A DNA stretch of 64,000 nucleotides from Spirochaetia bacterium (GCA_963675665.1 OY776510.1:3264001-3328000); one strand, 5' to 3'. Positions 20,871-27,986 are shown, counted from the stretch's first letter. Notes: a model not told the origin generated them from the letters alone. Numbers and translations are program-made.

Positions 20871-20894
20871 GGCCTGCGTAAGCAGGCCATTTTT
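20871..20894 (+). terminator. Intrinsic terminator, the insertion target of the group IIC intron
   Basis: GGCCTGC-GTAA-GCAGGCC followed by ATTTTT. Confidence 0.85.
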
Positions 20895-20895
20895 A

Positions 20896-22799
20896 GTTTG
20901 CCCTGCATGGGTAATGACTTGACGGTGAGAGTCCGTTACAGGTGGTAGTGTTAAAGAAACTGTTAGCTGACAGCAAGGGCGTAGTCGTGAGGCTGGGTCT
21001 GAAGGAAGCATGAGGCAAATTTCCGAACCGACGAACAGAAATCACATATAAGGCTTTATCAGTGGACGAGTTTGCTAAAAGTGACGAAATCCGCACTACA
21101 ACTGATGAAGTAAATGTGGCGGTTACATGGAAGGAAAGTCATTATCCTTAACGGGGGAGGTCTCATGGACGTCTTAGGCTGCAATATCGCTTATTATAGA
21201 CGGAGTAAAGCTTGCCATGAGAAGTCAGCAGAAGCCATAGTAGTGATGAGGAAACATCATGAAGGGCTGAACAATCAAATACCTTTCAAAGCGGAAAGGC
21301 CTACCTGATAATCCGAACGACGAAAAAAAAAAAAAAGTCTTCACAGGGGATAATTCAGAGTAGAAAGGAACACATGAGAAAGGACGACAAGTTAATACCG
21401 AATACCAATCTATGCGAACAACTGATTTCCCCTGCAAATATTCAGGAAGCTGTCAGAAAGGTGATGGCAAATAAAGGTGCCTGTGGAGTGGATGGAATGG
21501 GAGTAGAAGAACTCCCGAAATACTTCGAGGCGAACTATCCTGAAATATGCAGGCAGATTTTGAGCAGGAAGTACAAACCAAAACCAGTACTGCGAGTAGA
21601 AATACCAAAAGACAACGGGGGCGTACGACTTCTGGGGATCCCCACGGTAATAGACCGTGTAATCCAACAGGCTATGGTTCAGGTTTTAACTCCGGTGTTT
21701 GAACCGACTTTCAGCGACTTTAGTTTTGGGTTTCGACCGAACAGAAGCGCAGAAGATGCGGTTCGACTCGCCCAGACCTACATGTCCGAAGGATACACCC
21801 ATGTAGTTGATTTGGATTTATCCAAGTTCTTCGACACTGTAAACCATGACATCCTAATGAGTTTGATAGACAAACACATGGACGATAAGGACATCAGGAG
21901 GCTCATCTACGTATTCTTAAAAAGCGGAGTGATGACGGATGGAAGTATGATGGCCACAGCCTTGGGAACACCTCAGGGGGGACCGCTGTCTCCACTACTG
22001 TCAAATATTTATCTAACCCCGTATGACAAGGAATTGGAAAAGCGGGGATTACGTTTTGTCAGGTACGCAGATGACTGTAACATCTTCACAAAGAGCAAGA
22101 GGTCTTCTTACCGGGTGAGAGATAGTGTGAAAAGCTATCTTGAGCGAAAATTAAAACTTAAAGTGAATATGGAAAAGACAGAGGCGCGAAAAGCCGCGGG
22201 CTCTTCCTTCCTCGGATTCACCTTCTTGACCTACGGGAAACAGGAAATATTAGGAAGAGTCTATCCTCAAAAGAAGAAACTTAAGAAGCTCGAAGACCGT
22301 ATCAGACTAATTACCCGATGTAACAGAGGAGTAAAGATTGAAACGGTTATTAAAGAGCTTAACAGCATGTTCAGAGGATGGATAGGATACTTCGCAAGAA
22401 GCTCCATGAAAAACTACCTCGAAAGGTTGGTGGAGTGGACAAGAAGACGCATTCGCCAATATCTTTGGAAACAGTGGAAAACCGGAAGGAATAGAAAACA
22501 TCGTTTGAGACAATTAGGCGTTAGTGATTCTGTTCTGAGCCATTGGAAACTTGGAAGCAACTCTTATTGGAAAATGGCCGGTGTTATGAATCCTCTGTTG
22601 AAGAACGATATAATTCATAATCACTTTGGGTTGTTAGATGCTCTGGATTTCTACAAGAAACTCCATACGAAACGCATGGAGGCTGATCGGGTGGTACTTG
22701 ATTTGAGGTACCACAGTCTATTTGGTTGAACCGCCGTATACCGAACGGTACGTACGGTGGTGTGAGAGGCAGAAATTTATTGATTTCTGCCTACTCGAT
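20896..22799 (+). mobile_element. Group II intron, bacterial class C (IIC), apparently full length
   Basis: 5' end GTTTGCCCTGCATGG right after a terminator hairpin; domain V GAACCGCCGTATACCGAACGGTACGTACGGTGG (CGC triad) at about 22728-22762; domain VI with bulged A ending CTACTCGAT. Confidence 0.9.
21374..22729 (+). CDS. ltrA: Group II intron reverse transcriptase/maturase (no endonuclease domain)
   Basis: NKGACGVDG, R.LGIPTV.DR..QQA, SFGFRP.R, DLSKFFD, GTPQGGPLSPLLSNIYL, RYADD; AGAAAGGA SD. Confidence 0.96.
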   Translation: MRKDDKLIPNTNLCEQLISPANIQEAVRKVMANKGACGVDGMGVEELPKYFEANYPEICRQILSRKYKPKPVLRVEIPKDNGGVRLLGIPTVIDRVIQQAMVQVLTPVFEPTFSDFSFGFRPNRSAEDAVRLAQTYMSEGYTHVVDLDLSKFFDTVNHDILMSLIDKHMDDKDIRRLIYVFLKSGVMTDGSMMATALGTPQGGPLSPLLSNIYLTPYDKELEKRGLRFVRYADDCNIFTKSKRSSYRVRDSVKSYLERKLKLKVNMEKTEARKAAGSSFLGFTFLTYGKQEILGRVYPQKKKLKKLEDRIRLITRCNRGVKIETVIKELNSMFRGWIGYFARSSMKNYLERLVEWTRRRIRQYLWKQWKTGRNRKHRLRQLGVSDSVLSHWKLGSNSYWKMAGVMNPLLKNDIIHNHFGLLDALDFYKKLHTKRMEADRVVLDLRYHSLFG

Positions 22800-22824
22800 T
22801 AATTTTATCAGTACGGAGGCGGCC

Positions 22825-23027
22825 GTGTCGCAATTTGAAGAACTCAGAATAGTCGACAACTTCTACCAGACAAGCGCTTATTACCCGATGCCTGTTGTTG
22901 CGATAACTACTTTAAATGATAAGGGGCTGACTAACATAGGTCCTTACTCATTATGCTTTCCATATTATGTTGCGGGTAAAGACTACTACGCAATGCTGCT
23001 TGAAACTCGAAACAACAGCAATACCGC
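22825..23027 (+). pseudogene. 5' part of flavin-reductase-like (split-barrel) gene interrupted by IS66
   Basis: GGAGG SD, GTG 22825; PMPVVAITTLN..G.TNIGPYS motif; frame rejoins at 25347 after removing the IS and one target copy (..NSNTA|VNLL..). Confidence 0.85.
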
Positions 23028-23099
23028 GTAACCGTCAAAACAACCGCACCTTATGTTGAACTCTGAAATCTATTAAACTCCGGGAAGCTGGAGGAAATA

Positions 23100-23414
23100 A
23101 TGAACAAGCAATATACCGCTAAAGAGCGAGCAGACTATCTCACAGAATGGCGTGAGTCCGGGATGTCCGGAGGTCAGTTCTGCCGTGAGAATGATATACG
23201 GCCAACCACGTTTTATAACTGGACCAAACAAGAACGGCAGAAACAGAGAACACAAAAACCGGGTTTCGTAAAATTGCCAATGCTTGAAATACCTGCTGTG
23301 AAGAAAAATATAATCCTCGAACACGGTGGTTGGAAAATAATCCTGCAGCCTGGATTCAGCAGAGAAGATGCAATGGCAGCGATGGACCTGGTGGAAACGA
23401 AAAGTGTTTCCTGA
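23100..23414 (+). CDS. tnpA: IS66 accessory protein TnpA (HTH)
   Basis: W..SGMS...FCRE..I...TFY.W motif. Confidence 0.88.
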   Translation: MNKQYTAKERADYLTEWRESGMSGGQFCRENDIRPTTFYNWTKQERQKQRTQKPGFVKLPMLEIPAVKKNIILEHGGWKIILQPGFSREDAMAAMDLVETKSVS

Positions 23415-23751
23415 TTTCTCCAAGATAAAGATATTCATAAAACCAGGCAGTACCGATATGAGAAAAGCAATAAATGGCTTATCTATGATAGTAGCTGATG
23501 AGCTTGAATCAGATCCACTATCAGGCAATCTATTTTTATTTTGCAATAAAGAGAGACGGAATTTGAAAGCTCTCTATTGGGATAAAAACGGGTTTTGTTT
23601 ATGGCAGAAGAAACTTGAAAAACATCGCTTTCCATGGCCGAAAAATAATCAGGATGCAATAGAGCTGAAGCAGACTGAGCTTGACATGCTTCTAAAGGGT
23701 ATAGATTTCTGGAATGCTCATACAGAATTAAAATATTCTGAAATAACATAG
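23368..23751 (+). CDS. tnpB: IS66 accessory protein TnpB (Orf2; unrelated to the IS605 nuclease)
   Basis: TDMRK.INGL, LFLFCN, K.LYWD.NGFCLW.K.LE..RF.WP; true start may be the internal GTG near 23404. Confidence 0.9.
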   Translation: MQWQRWTWWKRKVFPDFSKIKIFIKPGSTDMRKAINGLSMIVADELESDPLSGNLFLFCNKERRNLKALYWDKNGFCLWQKKLEKHRFPWPKNNQDAIELKQTELDMLLKGIDFWNAHTELKYSEIT

Positions 23752-23795
23752 TATAAGGAATTTACCCTCGGATCAAAAAATGCTAGACTTAAGAT

Positions 23796-25307
23796 ATGGA
23801 TGTTGAAAAGCTTCCTGAAGAAGTACAGCAATACATCAAAGATATTGAACGAAAATGGGCAACGAAATACCAGGCGCTGGAAGAGCGTTTCAAGCTTGAA
23901 TTGTTCAAGAAATATAATCGTTCCAGCGAGAAAGACACAGCCGCTCAGATATTACTTTTTGATAGTGAACCGGATATTGCTCCCGAAGAAGAATCTGAAA
24001 CTCAGAAGGTAGAATCCTATACCAAAAAGAAACCTGGTCGAAAGAAGATAAACGAGAATCTTCCCCGTGAAGAAATCCTTATTGATATACCCGAAGAAGA
24101 GAAGAAATGCGCTTGCGGAGCAGAACTGGTTAGAATAGGCGAAGAAATATCCGAACGAATAAAAGTTGTACCGGAACAGATGTGGGTAGAAAGAACCATC
24201 AGACCCAAATATGCCTGTAAGACTTGTGAAGGCAGCGGAGATGAAGATAAACCTGCGGTGCGGATAGCCCCGACTGCTCCCACAATCTTTCCCAAAAGCA
24301 TAGTAACACCCGAGCTCCTTGCATTTTTGCTTGTAAATAAATATGTAGATCATTTGCCTTTCTACCGGCAGGAAAAGAGATTTGAGCGAATAGGGATCAG
24401 CATAAGCCGACAGGATATGAGCAACTGGCAAAGACAGGCATATGAAGCTCTTATAATCCTGCTTGAACTGATGAAAGAACATCTGAAAACCGGTTCGGTT
24501 ATGCAGATGGATGAAACGAGAATACAGGTTCACAATGAACCGGATAGGCCTGCTACTCGAAACTCCTATATGTGGCTTGCCCGAGGGGGGCCTCCGGGGC
24601 AAGTTGCAATTCTATATGAATATCATGAAACGAGGGGTTCTAAGAATATTCGCAGTTTTCTGGACGGATTCAGCGGCTATCTTCAGACTGACGGTTATGA
24701 AGCATATGTTACAGCGTTGAAAGATTATCCAGATATAATTCATGCCGGTTGTTTTGCTCATGCAAGACGGAAATTCTTTGATGCATCAAGAGTATCCAAG
24801 AAACCTGGCAGTGCTGCTGAAGGGCTGAAATATATTCAGAAACTGTATTTGATAGAGAATGAACTCAGAGCTAAAAACTTAAGTGAACCCGAGTTTCTTG
24901 CAGAAAGAAAAAAGAAGGCAGAACCGCTATTGGCCAAGTTCAGTTCCTGGCTTGAGAAAAGGCAGCATAATGTTGTTCCTTCGACTGAACTCGGAAAAGC
25001 GATATCATATACAATTGGGCAATGGAGCAAACTTGTAAATTATCTTGAATCACCTTATTTGACTCCGGATAATAATGCCTGTGAAAATGCTATCAGGCCG
25101 TTTGTGTTGGGCAGGAAAAACTGGTTGTTTGCCGGCAGCCCAAAAGGTGCTGAGAGTTCTTGCGGGATTTATTCACTTGTTGAAACAGCAAAGCAAAACG
25201 ATCTCAACCCTTATGTTTATCTGAGAAAAGTATTTACCGAAGCTCCGTTGATGAAGTCCAGTGAAGATTGGCAGGAGCTTCTTCCCTGGAATATTTATCT
25301 TAACTGA
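23796..25307 (+). CDS. tnpC: IS66 DDE transposase TnpC
   Basis: KY.DHLP.YRQ, MDET, LQTDGY, C.AHARRKF, DNN..E.AIRP...GRKNWLF. Confidence 0.96.
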   Translation: MDVEKLPEEVQQYIKDIERKWATKYQALEERFKLELFKKYNRSSEKDTAAQILLFDSEPDIAPEEESETQKVESYTKKKPGRKKINENLPREEILIDIPEEEKKCACGAELVRIGEEISERIKVVPEQMWVERTIRPKYACKTCEGSGDEDKPAVRIAPTAPTIFPKSIVTPELLAFLLVNKYVDHLPFYRQEKRFERIGISISRQDMSNWQRQAYEALIILLELMKEHLKTGSVMQMDETRIQVHNEPDRPATRNSYMWLARGGPPGQVAILYEYHETRGSKNIRSFLDGFSGYLQTDGYEAYVTALKDYPDIIHAGCFAHARRKFFDASRVSKKPGSAAEGLKYIQKLYLIENELRAKNLSEPEFLAERKKKAEPLLAKFSSWLEKRQHNVVPSTELGKAISYTIGQWSKLVNYLESPYLTPDNNACENAIRPFVLGRKNWLFAGSPKGAESSCGIYSLVETAKQNDLNPYVYLRKVFTEAPLMKSSEDWQELLPWNIYLN

Positions 25308-25338
25308 TTTTTCAGGGTGCGGTTGTTTTTACGGTTAC

Positions 25339-26055
25339 AATACCGCGGTAAACCTGTTAACAAACGGAAGATGTGTGCTTAACTTTGTTTTTCACGACAG
25401 AAAATATATGGAAAACTGTGTTGAGCTTGGTTTTCCGGGCGATAGTACCGACGAAAAAATGAAAAACAGTATGTTTACACTGATTGATAACCCGTATGAC
25501 ACAGACGGGCAGAAATGGCCGCGGTTGATAGACGAATCATACCAGGCTTTTGTCTGCAGTTGGGCAAGAGACCTTGAAAATGCTGATCGTTTCAAGGTAC
25601 AGGAAAGCTACGAGCCGCCTTATAATAGTTTTAACGGTATAACTTCTGAAGTCGGTGCTCATTTTATCCTGAAAATTGAGAAAATCTATATGAAACCGGA
25701 ATATAAAAAAGGCATTATAAACGGGGTAAAAAAATCAAGCTTTCCGGCTGTTCCGGTGGATTATGGTTACAGGGATAACGGAAACTTCTGGATAGCGGGA
25801 TTCAGAAAACCCTTTTCCGAGAAAATACCGGAAAAAAAGGGAATGGAGCTGGCAGCCGTTAAATATGCCGCTGATAGAACGGATCCGGAAATCAGGTTTA
25901 CGGACGAAGCCTGTGAGCAGCTTGTGAAAGTGCCGCGGATATTCCTGAAAGCTGCCCTTAACGGATGTGCTGAATGGGCCCGCGAAAACGGTGTGAATCT
26001 GATTACTGCCGAGCATATGAAGATTATTCGCGACAAACGGGCAAAGGAAAAGTAA
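25339..26055 (+). pseudogene. 3' part of the IS66-interrupted gene; ends in a PCP_red-like (BchB C-terminal-like) domain
   Basis: Continuous frame to TAA 26055; C-terminus FTDEA.E.L.KVP..FL.......E.WARENG...IT. Confidence 0.8.
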
Positions 26056-26067
26056 AGAAACCGAAAG

Positions 26068-26205
26068 TCACACAAGTGAAATACCTGCCATTATTGAGTA
26101 ATTGGAGAAGTATTATAACCCTATATCAGGGTTATCGTACTTCTCTGGAGTTTAGTTATTTTCCTGTCGCAAAATAACCAAACATCCATTTAATCTTGTC
26201 GCTGT
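26068..26205 (-). repeat. Diverged duplicate of the last 53 bp of ptb, split by an 85-nt double hairpin
   Basis: 26188-26205 plus 26068-26102 match 26214-26266 at 45/53 nt without gaps; insert 26103-26187 folds into two stems. Confidence 0.85.
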
Positions 26206-26213
26206 AGTGATAG

Positions 26214-27110
26214 TTATACCAGTGATACCCCTGCCAGTATTGAGTAATACTTAATCTTGTCGCTGTCGCTTCGTGAGGTGAGGATGATTGGAACATCGGC
26301 GCCTGCAATAAGTCCTGCCATCGGGTAATCGGTAAGGTATGCAATGGATTTGTAAAATATATTGGCAGCTTCGATGTCCGGGAAAAGCAGAACATCAGCG
26401 TCTCCTCCGACTTCTGTTTTTATTCCCTTGATTTCACAGCTTTTGGTCGATATTGCATTGTCCAGTGCAAACGGGCCGTCAATAATACAGTTTTTAATCT
26501 GCCCCCGATCCGACATCTTTGCCAATACTGCCGCGTCAAGGGTTGCAGGCATTGCAGGGTTGACTTTTTCTACAGCTCCTACAACAGCAACCTTCGGGGT
26601 TTCTACTCCGAGTTTCCGGGACACAGCGACTGCATTTTCTACAAGAGAGATTTTGTCTTTCAGTTCTGGCGCAATGTTAAGCGCTGAATCAGTTGAAATG
26701 ATAAGCTTATGGTATGTCGGCGGATTTAAAATTGCTATATGCGACAGAACACCTGAACCGCGAAGGCCTTTTTCCTTGTCCAGGACAGCCCTCATAATTG
26801 TAGCTGTTGAAGTTTTACCCTTCATAAGGCAGTCTCCGCGGCCGTTCCGGATTAATTCAACGGCTACGGCGGCGCAATTCTTTTCTCCATCGGTATTAAT
26901 AATTTCAAAAGAACTTATGTCAACTCCGCATTCGTTTGCAGTCTTCCTGATGTCGCCACTGTTGCCTACCAGTAATACATCTATAATTCCTGCTGATGCT
27001 GCTTCGCTGACAGCTTTAAGCGCGTCGGCTTCTTCGGCCATTGCAAGTACCACTTTTTTTGATTCATTATCAACAGCGGTTTTTTCAAGTTCGGCAAAAC
27101 TTGTTATCAT
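26214..27110 (-). CDS. ptb: Phosphate acyltransferase (phosphate butyryltransferase-like)
   Basis: LMKG...TA, D.ALNIAP, E.VNP.MP.T.DA, DGPFALDNAIS, P.IEAANI.YK, PIILTSRSD. Confidence 0.9.
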   Translation of the reverse strand: MITSFAELEKTAVDNESKKVVLAMAEEADALKAVSEAASAGIIDVLLVGNSGDIRKTANECGVDISSFEIINTDGEKNCAAVAVELIRNGRGDCLMKGKTSTATIMRAVLDKEKGLRGSGVLSHIAILNPPTYHKLIISTDSALNIAPELKDKISLVENAVAVSRKLGVETPKVAVVGAVEKVNPAMPATLDAAVLAKMSDRGQIKNCIIDGPFALDNAISTKSCEIKGIKTEVGGDADVLLFPDIEAANIFYKSIAYLTDYPMAGLIAGADVPIILTSRSDSDKIKYYSILAGVSLV

Positions 27111-27230
27111 TATTTTCCTCCTGTGGGATATAAGAACAACTTAATTATAGTTGACTTTATATATACGGCATTCTACAATCATATCCTATAAAATGGATAA
27201 AGAAAACAGCCAGGACTAAAAGGATGAAGC

Positions 27231-27986
27231 ATGCTATCAATACAAGGCGTAAGCAAACATTTCGGCGGTCTTAAAGCTCTAAAGGGCGTAAGCTTCAATA
27301 TTGAAGAGGGCAGAATTCACGGTATTATCGGTCCGAACGGATCTGGTAAAACGACAATGTTCAATTGTATTACCGGACTTTTAGAGGTAACTTCAGGTCA
27401 GATTTTCCTTGATGATACGGAGATTACTGGTAAACCGCCTCATTTGATTTCTAATCTTGGGATAAGACGAACATTTCAGCAGGGCAAACTTGTACCGTCA
27501 ATGACGGTAGTTGAGAATGTAATGAGCGGTATTTTTGAATATGGAAGACATGATATTGCTGATACCTTTTTCCGATTGCCGTTATCTGAATCAAAAAAGG
27601 AAATTCAGCTTCGGGAGCAGGCGCTTGAGATGCTTGAAATGCTTGATCTGGCAGATTCTGCTGAAAGATGGGCGTACGACCTTGTATGGGCGGAGCGGCA
27701 GTTTGTGCAGATTGCACGTGCTGTTGTTTCAAAACCCAAAATGCTGCTCCTTGATGAGCCGGCATCAGGAATGGGTCCTGCAGAAACAAGCGAAGTAGGT
27801 GAACTGATTAAGAAGGTTAAAAAAATGGGGATTACTCCTGTTGTTGTCAGTCATGATATGAAAATGCTGATGAATGTTGCCGAGATGGTAACGGTCCTTA
27901 ATTTCGGTGATAATATTTTTGAAGGTACACCCGATCAGGTACAGAAAGATCCTAAAGTACTGGAGGCATACCTTGGCACCGAATGA
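27231..27986 (+). CDS. Liv/HAAT-type ABC transporter ATP-binding protein (LivG-like)
   Basis: GIIGPNGSGKTT, RTFQ, LLLDEPASG, V.EAYLG. Confidence 0.92.
   Translation: MLSIQGVSKHFGGLKALKGVSFNIEEGRIHGIIGPNGSGKTTMFNCITGLLEVTSGQIFLDDTEITGKPPHLISNLGIRRTFQQGKLVPSMTVVENVMSGIFEYGRHDIADTFFRLPLSESKKEIQLREQALEMLEMLDLADSAERWAYDLVWAERQFVQIARAVVSKPKMLLLDEPASGMGPAETSEVGELIKKVKKMGITPVVVSHDMKMLMNVAEMVTVLNFGDNIFEGTPDQVQKDPKVLEAYLGTE

Follow-up and report, generated by a model that had tools for sequence, protein, structure and literature searches.

The locus described here raises the question of how the end of a ptb gene came to be followed by a second, altered copy of itself that is in turn split by a pair of hairpins. 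The window, i.e., the whole stretch of DNA analysed (64,000 nt), belongs to the 5.15-Mb genome of a Spirochaetia bacterium (G000); positions are counted from the first letter of the window, and coordinates of the whole genome carry the prefix G000. The features needed for the argument are listed below, with the kind of evidence in brackets; the second copy of the tail is referred to as the echo.

26214..27110, minus strand: ptb, an intact gene of the phosphate acetyl/butyryl transferase family, 298 aa (ORF and Pfam)
26214..26266, minus strand: copy A, the working tail, i.e., the last 53 nt of ptb including the stop codon (sequence)
26206..26213, minus strand: spacer of 8 nt that separates the copy A stop codon from the echo (sequence)
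26188..26205, minus strand: left half of the echo, 18 nt, 17/18 identical to copy A (sequence)
26114..26196, minus strand: segment homologous to the spacer-B-A part of a three-hairpin family of putative MITEs (nhmmer, profile positions 8-91 of 93)
26147..26187, minus strand: hairpin 1, B-type, with the base GGA-T-GTTT...AAAC-TCC and a bulged T (folds, alignment, pair counts)
26105..26145, minus strand: hairpin 2, with an interior like that of the family A hairpin, ATAACCC...GGGTTAT (folds, alignment)
26068..26102, minus strand: 35 nt ending in TGA that form the right half of the echo and match copy A at 28/35 positions (sequence)
25339..26055, plus strand: 3' portion of a convergent gene without an assigned family (ORFs; 5' portion at 22726-23027)
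23027..25338, plus strand: IS66-family element splitting the convergent gene (three IS66-type ORFs, by reading; 2.3-kb repeat)

The ptb product matches PF01515 (3.4e-50) and is 60-80% identical to its homologues at nine loci in relatives; its identity to the protein of a 5.38-Mb relative, the sole other member of its 90% cluster, is 99%. A metagenome scan with ptb gave a best match of 62% identity and no close relative. Copy A encodes the genus consensus YYSILAGVSLV, and a tail of this type also ends the ptb protein of the 5.38-Mb relative. The ptb loci of all nine relatives stop at the copy A stop codon; a second tail or these hairpins are absent from all nine loci examined, and the downstream neighbours of ptb differ in each of them. 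On the other side of the echo, the residues of the convergent gene encoded from 25390-26055 have no match in Pfam, and the gene is 73% identical in nucleotide sequence to a locus of the genome G005, homology to the region 3' of the gene at that locus beginning at 26069, right past the right half of the echo. The IS66-family element is a multi-copy 2.3-kb repeat with the flanking direct repeat AATACCGCG, and a contig of a close relative reads through without it; it bears on the history of the locus rather than on the split tail. A 1.9-kb IS with six copies lies just upstream of this element (window 20882-22806).

The echo is identical to copy A at 45 of 53 nt and is interrupted after its first 18 nt by 85 nt (26103-26187). 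The layout transcribed in the earlier note, including the 8-nt gap, was read correctly. The eight differences fall at codon positions 3, 1, 3, 1, 3, 3, 3, and 2 and amount, at the peptide level, to two conservative changes (L/M and V/I) and a stop-to-stop change within an open frame. The earlier note had taken this as evidence that both copies evolved as coding sequence. The pattern itself was confirmed (P = 0.0034, assuming that all changes were random in a dead copy), but its strength was not: P rises to 0.03-0.06 when three to four of the changes are taken to be silent ones in the live copy, and the coding-like look of the differences is only moderately significant. The L/M change of the echo is present in none of the nine relatives, and the residue I at its V/I position only at one of their loci, L008. 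The 8 nt that follow copy A match those that follow the echo at 5/8 positions, as predicted by a duplicated unit of 61 nt. Additionally, the last 9 nt of the left half of the echo match the motif that precedes hairpin B in the family. Misassembly is argued against by a 17-kb Logan contig of run X1, which covers 25309-27200 with zero differences and spans the junctions unchanged; a second sample, X3, contains identical pieces, including 25996-26178, and the two may come from the same strain or source and hence not be independent.

An allele without the hairpins, which the earlier note proposed to look for as the empty one, was found in a close relative, organism B, which is probably the 5.38-Mb relative or its close kin and is represented here by short, low-depth contigs (depth 2-5.5). 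Its contigs differ from the window at 38 of 959 nt in ptb and at 61 of 742 nt in the convergent gene. An 88-nt contig (depth 5.5) carries the right half of the echo joined directly to the left half, without hairpins; the junction, located exactly at the insertion point, is 3 nt shorter and has one substitution, which makes an insertion here and an imprecise loss there indistinguishable. A depth-2 contig contains the two tail copies in tandem with 38 letters between them, i.e., the spacer of 8 nt in the window corresponds to one of about 38-39 nt in organism B, and the first 8 letters of both spacers match at 5/8 positions (by reading). Tail and echo are therefore common to both organisms and the hairpin element is present in one only, from which it follows that the duplication is older than the presence/absence difference. 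The divergence in ptb is unevenly distributed: of the 36 differences listed, the segment 26242-26600 has 1, the segment 26601-26940 has 31, and the segment 26941-27200 has 4, which indicates recombination tracts. At the same time, seven neighbouring protein pairs are 94.1 to 99.7% identical between the window and the close relative, and two of nine neighbouring proteins are without a partner at 90% (one is not on record); the mosaic divergence is general between the two genomes and is not tied to the tail.

The 85-nt insert folds as two abutting hairpins. The DNA fold of 101 nt has a free energy of -24.9 kcal/mol (z = -9.95; equalled by 0/200 shuffles), and the RNA fold of 211 nt gives z = -4.42. 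In the family alignment, helix 1 is 96.6% paired; the outer stem of hairpin 2 has diverged with retention of pairing. BLAST of the 85 nt against the genome returned only the insert itself, the next best match being 21 nt long, which suggested a unique element. This view was overturned by a profile search: a spacer+B+A profile built from 12 copies, with the window copy left out, recovered the window copy genome-wide by nhmmer at E = 1.5e-7 and 32.5 bits (G000 3290196-3290114). The insert, found only once by BLAST, is thus a diverged member of a repeat family, and both of its stems are still paired despite ~30% divergence from that family. Hairpin C and the left end are missing from it, and its right end matches that of the family at 12/18 positions (by reading of the alignment). 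The echo sequence AAGATTAAAT and the family consensus TAGATTTAAT, the spacer motif before hairpin B, agree at 8/10 positions. The window copy has neither a left terminal inverted repeat (TIR) nor a target-site duplication. The insert had been described as exact and free of target duplication; the latter holds, but the boundary does not, since family homology starts 9 nt further left, at 26196. Nor is the proposed 7-nt match of the hairpin 1 loop to ptb codons specific, since the loop motif CGACAGG recurs in the family copy at G000 3924688. Rfam gave nothing at E <= 10 in 25000-27500 and nothing at E <= 1 in six loci with family copies. Judged by its sequence, the double hairpin is a worn, shortened copy of a putative spirochaete MITE, and its arrival by transposition would follow from the behaviour of the family.

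This family was defined by several searches. A hairpin scan of the genome found 51 abutting double hairpins. The base G[GA]A(N)GT[TA]T...A[TA]AC(N)T[CT]C occurred in 60 hairpins, against 1 in a reversed-genome control; a subfamily of these 60 is 41 nt long and resembles hairpin 1. The profile search revealed about 17 family loci in G000. The layout comprises hairpin C, a short spacer motif, hairpin B, and hairpin A; members are 81-242 nt long and have no ORF, and minimal TIR-TIR forms of ~40 nt also exist. The right end repeats the left end, GGGGAYYTCTAAAAAC, in inverted orientation, and each of these TIRs forms one half of a hairpin in complete members. Of 13 complete copies from G000 and relatives, 9 are flanked by a perfect 4-bp repeat (ACAT, ATAA, TATA, TTAT, CAAT, TTTA, TTAA, GGAT, and TATA). 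Moreover, a scan of a species-wide genome collection with the left end yielded 64 loci, 63 of them in MAGs labelled Spirochaetota. A right end, called when an inverted match of at least 9/12 occurred within 260 nt, was recognised in 37 of the 64, and 18 of these 37 have a perfect 4-bp repeat, compared with 0/37 in a control shifted by 4 nt; the 27 loci without a right end by this test include some minimal hairpin forms that the search window skips. Since the members have TIRs and 4-bp target duplications and are small, non-coding, and multi-copy, the C-B-A family is, on sequence grounds, one of putative MITEs, except for the missing autonomous partner: no TIR pair 0.4-6 kb apart was found in G000, no long candidate flanked by target-site duplications among the 64 loci, and no family ends on the three IS families whose termini were inspected (1.42-kb, 1.3-kb, and 1.9-kb) or on the IS1111-type element described below. 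In a census of prokaryotic MITEs, spirochaetes (Leptospira, Sediminispirochaeta, and Treponema) are reported to be MITE-rich, with ~145 per genome (PMC11602168). No description of the three-hairpin family was found by full-text literature searches; the supplementary MITE lists of PMC11602168 may include it.

The middle hairpin B (41 nt) is nearly invariant in other species and genera at unrelated loci, its pattern being found in 6 of 11 genomes including G000 and in 0 controls. It is letter-identical between species whose ptb genes are ~77% identical, one copy in the genome G004 being identical to G000 copies; other lineages have a different middle hairpin. The proposed covariance check supported the hairpins: 82% of cells in the family stems are paired, versus <=50% when the stems are slid, and the covariation score is 0.231 versus 0.122, a value reached by 0/500 shuffles. 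Compensatory changes occur in the B stem and, for hairpin A, in 11 of 18 pairs. Other copies of the family occupy sites just past stop codons or the gap that separates a terminator from the following gene. The earlier note had asked whether other copies sit within duplicated gene ends, which they do not; the only duplicated flanks around hairpin modules were tandem arrays of whole repeat units, as judged from a hairpin catalogue that requires 9 exact pairs and so misses the ptb case. Tandem arrays of a three-hairpin unit occur directly upstream of gene starts at G000 1652373-1652744, 4576606, 4279405, and 2973231. They contain up to 5 units of 112 nt in which two loops read CATGGANG, and the unit end CCTCC corresponds, on the other strand, to GGAGG followed by ATG; these arrays may represent another MITE family or a leader element. 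Additionally, two other long hairpins lie 3' of the convergent-gene homologue in G005 (L012:417-560, contig C272), and the outer stem of one of them, GGAGAAGTAT...ATACTTCTCC, is of the type seen in hairpin 2. This type of outer stem, GAAGTAT...ATACTTC, is a multi-copy hairpin base in G000.

Several family copies adjoin a gene for a 382-aa DEDD transposase (PF01548, 2.6e-13; PF02371, 1.3e-20). It belongs to an IS1111-type element (IS110 superfamily) with seven near-identical copies, the reference copy being L013:1640-3190 (G000 3725141-3726690) and the tnp starts of the other six G000 555180, 2047679, 2622643, 2820003, 4982943, and 5031897. Its subterminal inverted repeats are 13 nt long, tnp is followed downstream by ~330 nt of non-coding sequence, and a relative of 69% identity is located in the integron region (G000 4456957-4457985). 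A reading of the hairpin module as the bridge-RNA region of an IS110-family element was dropped after alignment of the seven copies. Their ends, TTAGACAATATG... and ...CATATCAGAGGT, exclude the hairpins, and in 6/7 copies the insertion point is the same, within the 3' arm of an A-type hairpin (...TTATTAG/AGGTTCCC); hence the hairpins, and hairpin A in particular, are the target of the IS and not a part of it. The seventh copy sits in another hairpin repeat. A 1.42-kb IS with 15 copies (e.g., G000 471989-473406, 1288538-1289952, and 1349688-1351104), whose ends abut the halves of an AT-rich 'Y-type' hairpin (AATGATAAAAAGTC...GACTTTTTAT), appears to be a second IS that lands in a hairpin repeat.

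Duplication of a gene end is itself not confined to ptb. In a test of 5,588 ORF ends, 10 had a downstream echo above the control maximum: three were CRISPR arrays read as ORFs, one a repeat unit, two weak or unclear, three plain tandem duplications, and one ptb. Thus, besides ptb, at least three genes, at G000 2084344 (-), 2610949 (+), and 3382793 (-), carry plain tandem duplications across the stop codon, with the last 18-33 nt and the stop repeated once or twice just downstream in repeat units of 24, 40, and about 80 nt. The false 'tail echoes' among the ten stem from CRISPR arrays at G000 2310859-2314266 with the repeat GTTTCAATCCACGCTCCCGCGAAGGGAGCGAC. Separately, the 3' end of a tRNA gene together with ~125 nt downstream is repeated three times with 143-nt spacing at G000 697947-698113, which looks like stacked attachment-site remnants.

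The locus is best explained, with moderate confidence, by an old duplication of the tail and the later insertion and truncation of a MITE. According to this explanation, a local duplication of the last ~61 nt of ptb across its stop codon would have left the gene intact and produced a non-coding echo of the tail just downstream. A three-hairpin MITE would later have inserted into this echo at ATTA, presumably through the action in trans of a DDE transposase. A deletion between AAGATTAAAT of the echo and the near-identical spacer motif of the MITE (family consensus TAGATTTAAT) would then have removed the left target copy along with hairpin C, and the remnant would look as though 85 nt had been inserted precisely and no target had been duplicated. 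The putative target copy ATTA would be left on the right, and the remnant would have drifted with both stems kept paired. The element would do nothing specific to ptb, its hairpins at most stabilising or ending the two convergent transcripts. What is conjectural in this explanation is that the echo arose by tandem duplication, in which order the events took place, and by which route the MITE was truncated. Against it, the coding-like differences fit an echo that once worked elsewhere better than pure drift, and the spacers of 8 and about 38-39 nt require an extra indel under a shared tandem duplication.

The same coding-like differences would favour the allele replacement proposed in the earlier note. 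There, the echo is the original working tail, hit or displaced by a hairpin mini-element, and the present tail was imported by recombination from a related allele through one homologous and one illegitimate junction, such that the imported tail and a few bases precede the resident one; the mosaic divergence of ptb, with recombination tracts that end near the tail, speaks for it as well. We regard this account as unlikely, because copy A carries the genus consensus and the echo the L/M and V/I changes, the opposite of what an imported tail predicts, because the mosaicism of the genome pair is not linked to the tail, and because both organisms share tail and echo, the relative's without hairpins, so that the duplication need not postdate the insertion. 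What stands of this proposal is that a hairpin mini-element interrupts an old tail copy; rescue by an allele of a relative is neither needed nor shown, given that the duplication predates the hairpin difference and that plain stop-spanning duplications occur elsewhere in the genome. The echo could also be an attR-like remnant of an integrative element that targeted the ptb 3' end and brought a replacement tail with it, in the manner of phage 21 and e14 at icd in E. coli; deletion of the element would later have reduced the spacer to 8 nt here and to about 38 nt in the relative. The region downstream of ptb, different in each of the nine relatives, is hotspot-like, and the diverged tail copies and the spacer lengths that differ between close organisms would suit such a history, which we nevertheless consider very unlikely: no integrase, element, or recognisable element end lies between the copies, the element would have to have been deleted almost entirely on two independent occasions, each time up to just inside both junctions, and the 5/8 match of the spacer starts suggests a single origin with a later indel.

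The proposal that the double hairpin is a guide- or bridge-like RNA, or was left behind by a guided mobile element, with flanks and loop programmed to the ptb tail, is barely credible. The 8/10 bases shared by the left junction and the family motif before hairpin B, the 7 nt of ptb in the loop, and the presence of an IS1111-type element of the IS110 superfamily, described as RNA-guided in PMC11187229, speak for it. However, the loop motif recurs at G000 3924688, near-invariance of hairpin B at unrelated loci means that it is not programmed per site, the IS1111-type ends lie outside the hairpins and hairpin A is their target, and the flanks are explained by the echo, which is intact in the relative. 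The version with a site-specific element that supplies a recoded tail finds no support for want of any integrase, nuclease, or element between the copies and of other family copies in duplicated gene ends; the version with a two-armed antisense or guide RNA is equally unsupported in view of the shared loop motif, the missing Rfam match, and the absence of a transposase adjoining the ptb copy. The guide-RNA lead was useful only indirectly, through the IS1111-type element that lands on a family hairpin. There is a slim chance that the hairpin pair is retained because ptb and the convergent gene share it as a 3' end structure that terminates or stabilises their transcripts, in which case its mobile origin would be secondary. 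The retained pairing of both diverged stems, the lack of another terminator-like site between the two stop codons, and the position of other family copies, just past stop codons or after a terminator and ahead of the following gene, agree with this, but neither hairpin is followed by a T-run, a terminator scan found no intrinsic terminator-like site in 26056-26213, and the close relative manages without the hairpins. We give only a small probability to a layered system, in which a mobile module conserved for its structure, as a protein-binding site or small RNA, would be parasitised by a guided IS1111-type element, and the ptb copy would be kept as a 3'-end structure. This reading draws on the letter identity of hairpin B across species while the outer hairpins co-vary freely and on hairpin A being the standard landing site of the IS1111-type element; if true, it would mean that a module spread by one transposase is parasitised by a second, guided one.

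If duplication followed by MITE insertion is correct, the locus drops out as a possible new guide RNA or new mobile element that replaces gene ends, and a striking layout would result from two common processes, a small stop-spanning duplication and a MITE insertion with decay. As by-products, a putative MITE family widespread in Spirochaetota has been defined by its ends, target duplication, and three-hairpin build, which helps the annotation of repeat-rich spirochaete genomes, and the targeting of its end hairpin by an IS1111-type element helps the mining of natural seekRNA/bridge-RNA targets.

Among known systems, attC sites of integrons have inverse core sites, RYYYAAC...GTTRRRY, and are clustered in a cassette array. 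This identity was dropped because the hairpin bases here, ...GTTT (5') and AAAC... (3'), have the opposite order; the distribution of the hairpins over the chromosome is even, with no enrichment in the integron region. Replacement of gene 3' ends by integrating elements, known for icd with phage 21 and e14 and for islands in tRNA genes, likewise leaves a diverged duplicate of the last tens of bases of a gene downstream of its working end. In contrast, the ptb copies are 8 nt apart with no element and no integrase ORF between them, and an integrative element with a replacement gene end was dropped for this reason. A PATE or omega-RNA remnant of the IS200/IS605 type was dropped because G000 contains neither RAYT/Y1 (PF01797; 0 matches, with 6/14 control genomes positive) nor TnpB (PF07282; none, with 8/14 controls positive), and REP/RAYT was dropped for the missing PF01797. 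The REP/BIME elements of proteobacteria nevertheless resemble the hairpins described here as intergenic palindromes in mosaics, and they are reported to be preferred landing sites of IS110/IS1111-family elements (PMC1525189, PMC12288879, and PMC11187229); the family described here differs from them in its TIRs and 4-bp target duplications, which REPs lack, and in the absence of RAYT/Y1 from the genome.

The bridge RNA or seekRNA of IS110/IS1111 elements is also a structured non-coding segment with hairpins (PMC11208160 and PMC11187229), and the genome carries a seven-copy IS1111-type element. However, the ptb hairpins are not inside such an IS, with no transposase adjoining this copy, and are related to its target rather than to its RNA, nor is any per-site programming seen in the family copies; this identity was dropped as well. 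The closest counterparts are the bacterial MITEs, which include Correia/NEMIS of Neisseria, RUP, and ERIC. The ptb copy departs from them as a truncated remnant without a TIR pair or target-site duplication, and no autonomous partner of its family was found. The spirochaete family shares with these MITEs its small size, non-coding and multi-copy nature, TIRs, short target-site duplication, and hairpin formation, as well as a mostly intergenic location, sometimes in gene ends, and a transposase presumably acting in trans, and it is distinguished from them by three hairpins, by TIRs that are each half of a hairpin, and by a middle hairpin that is near-invariant across genera.
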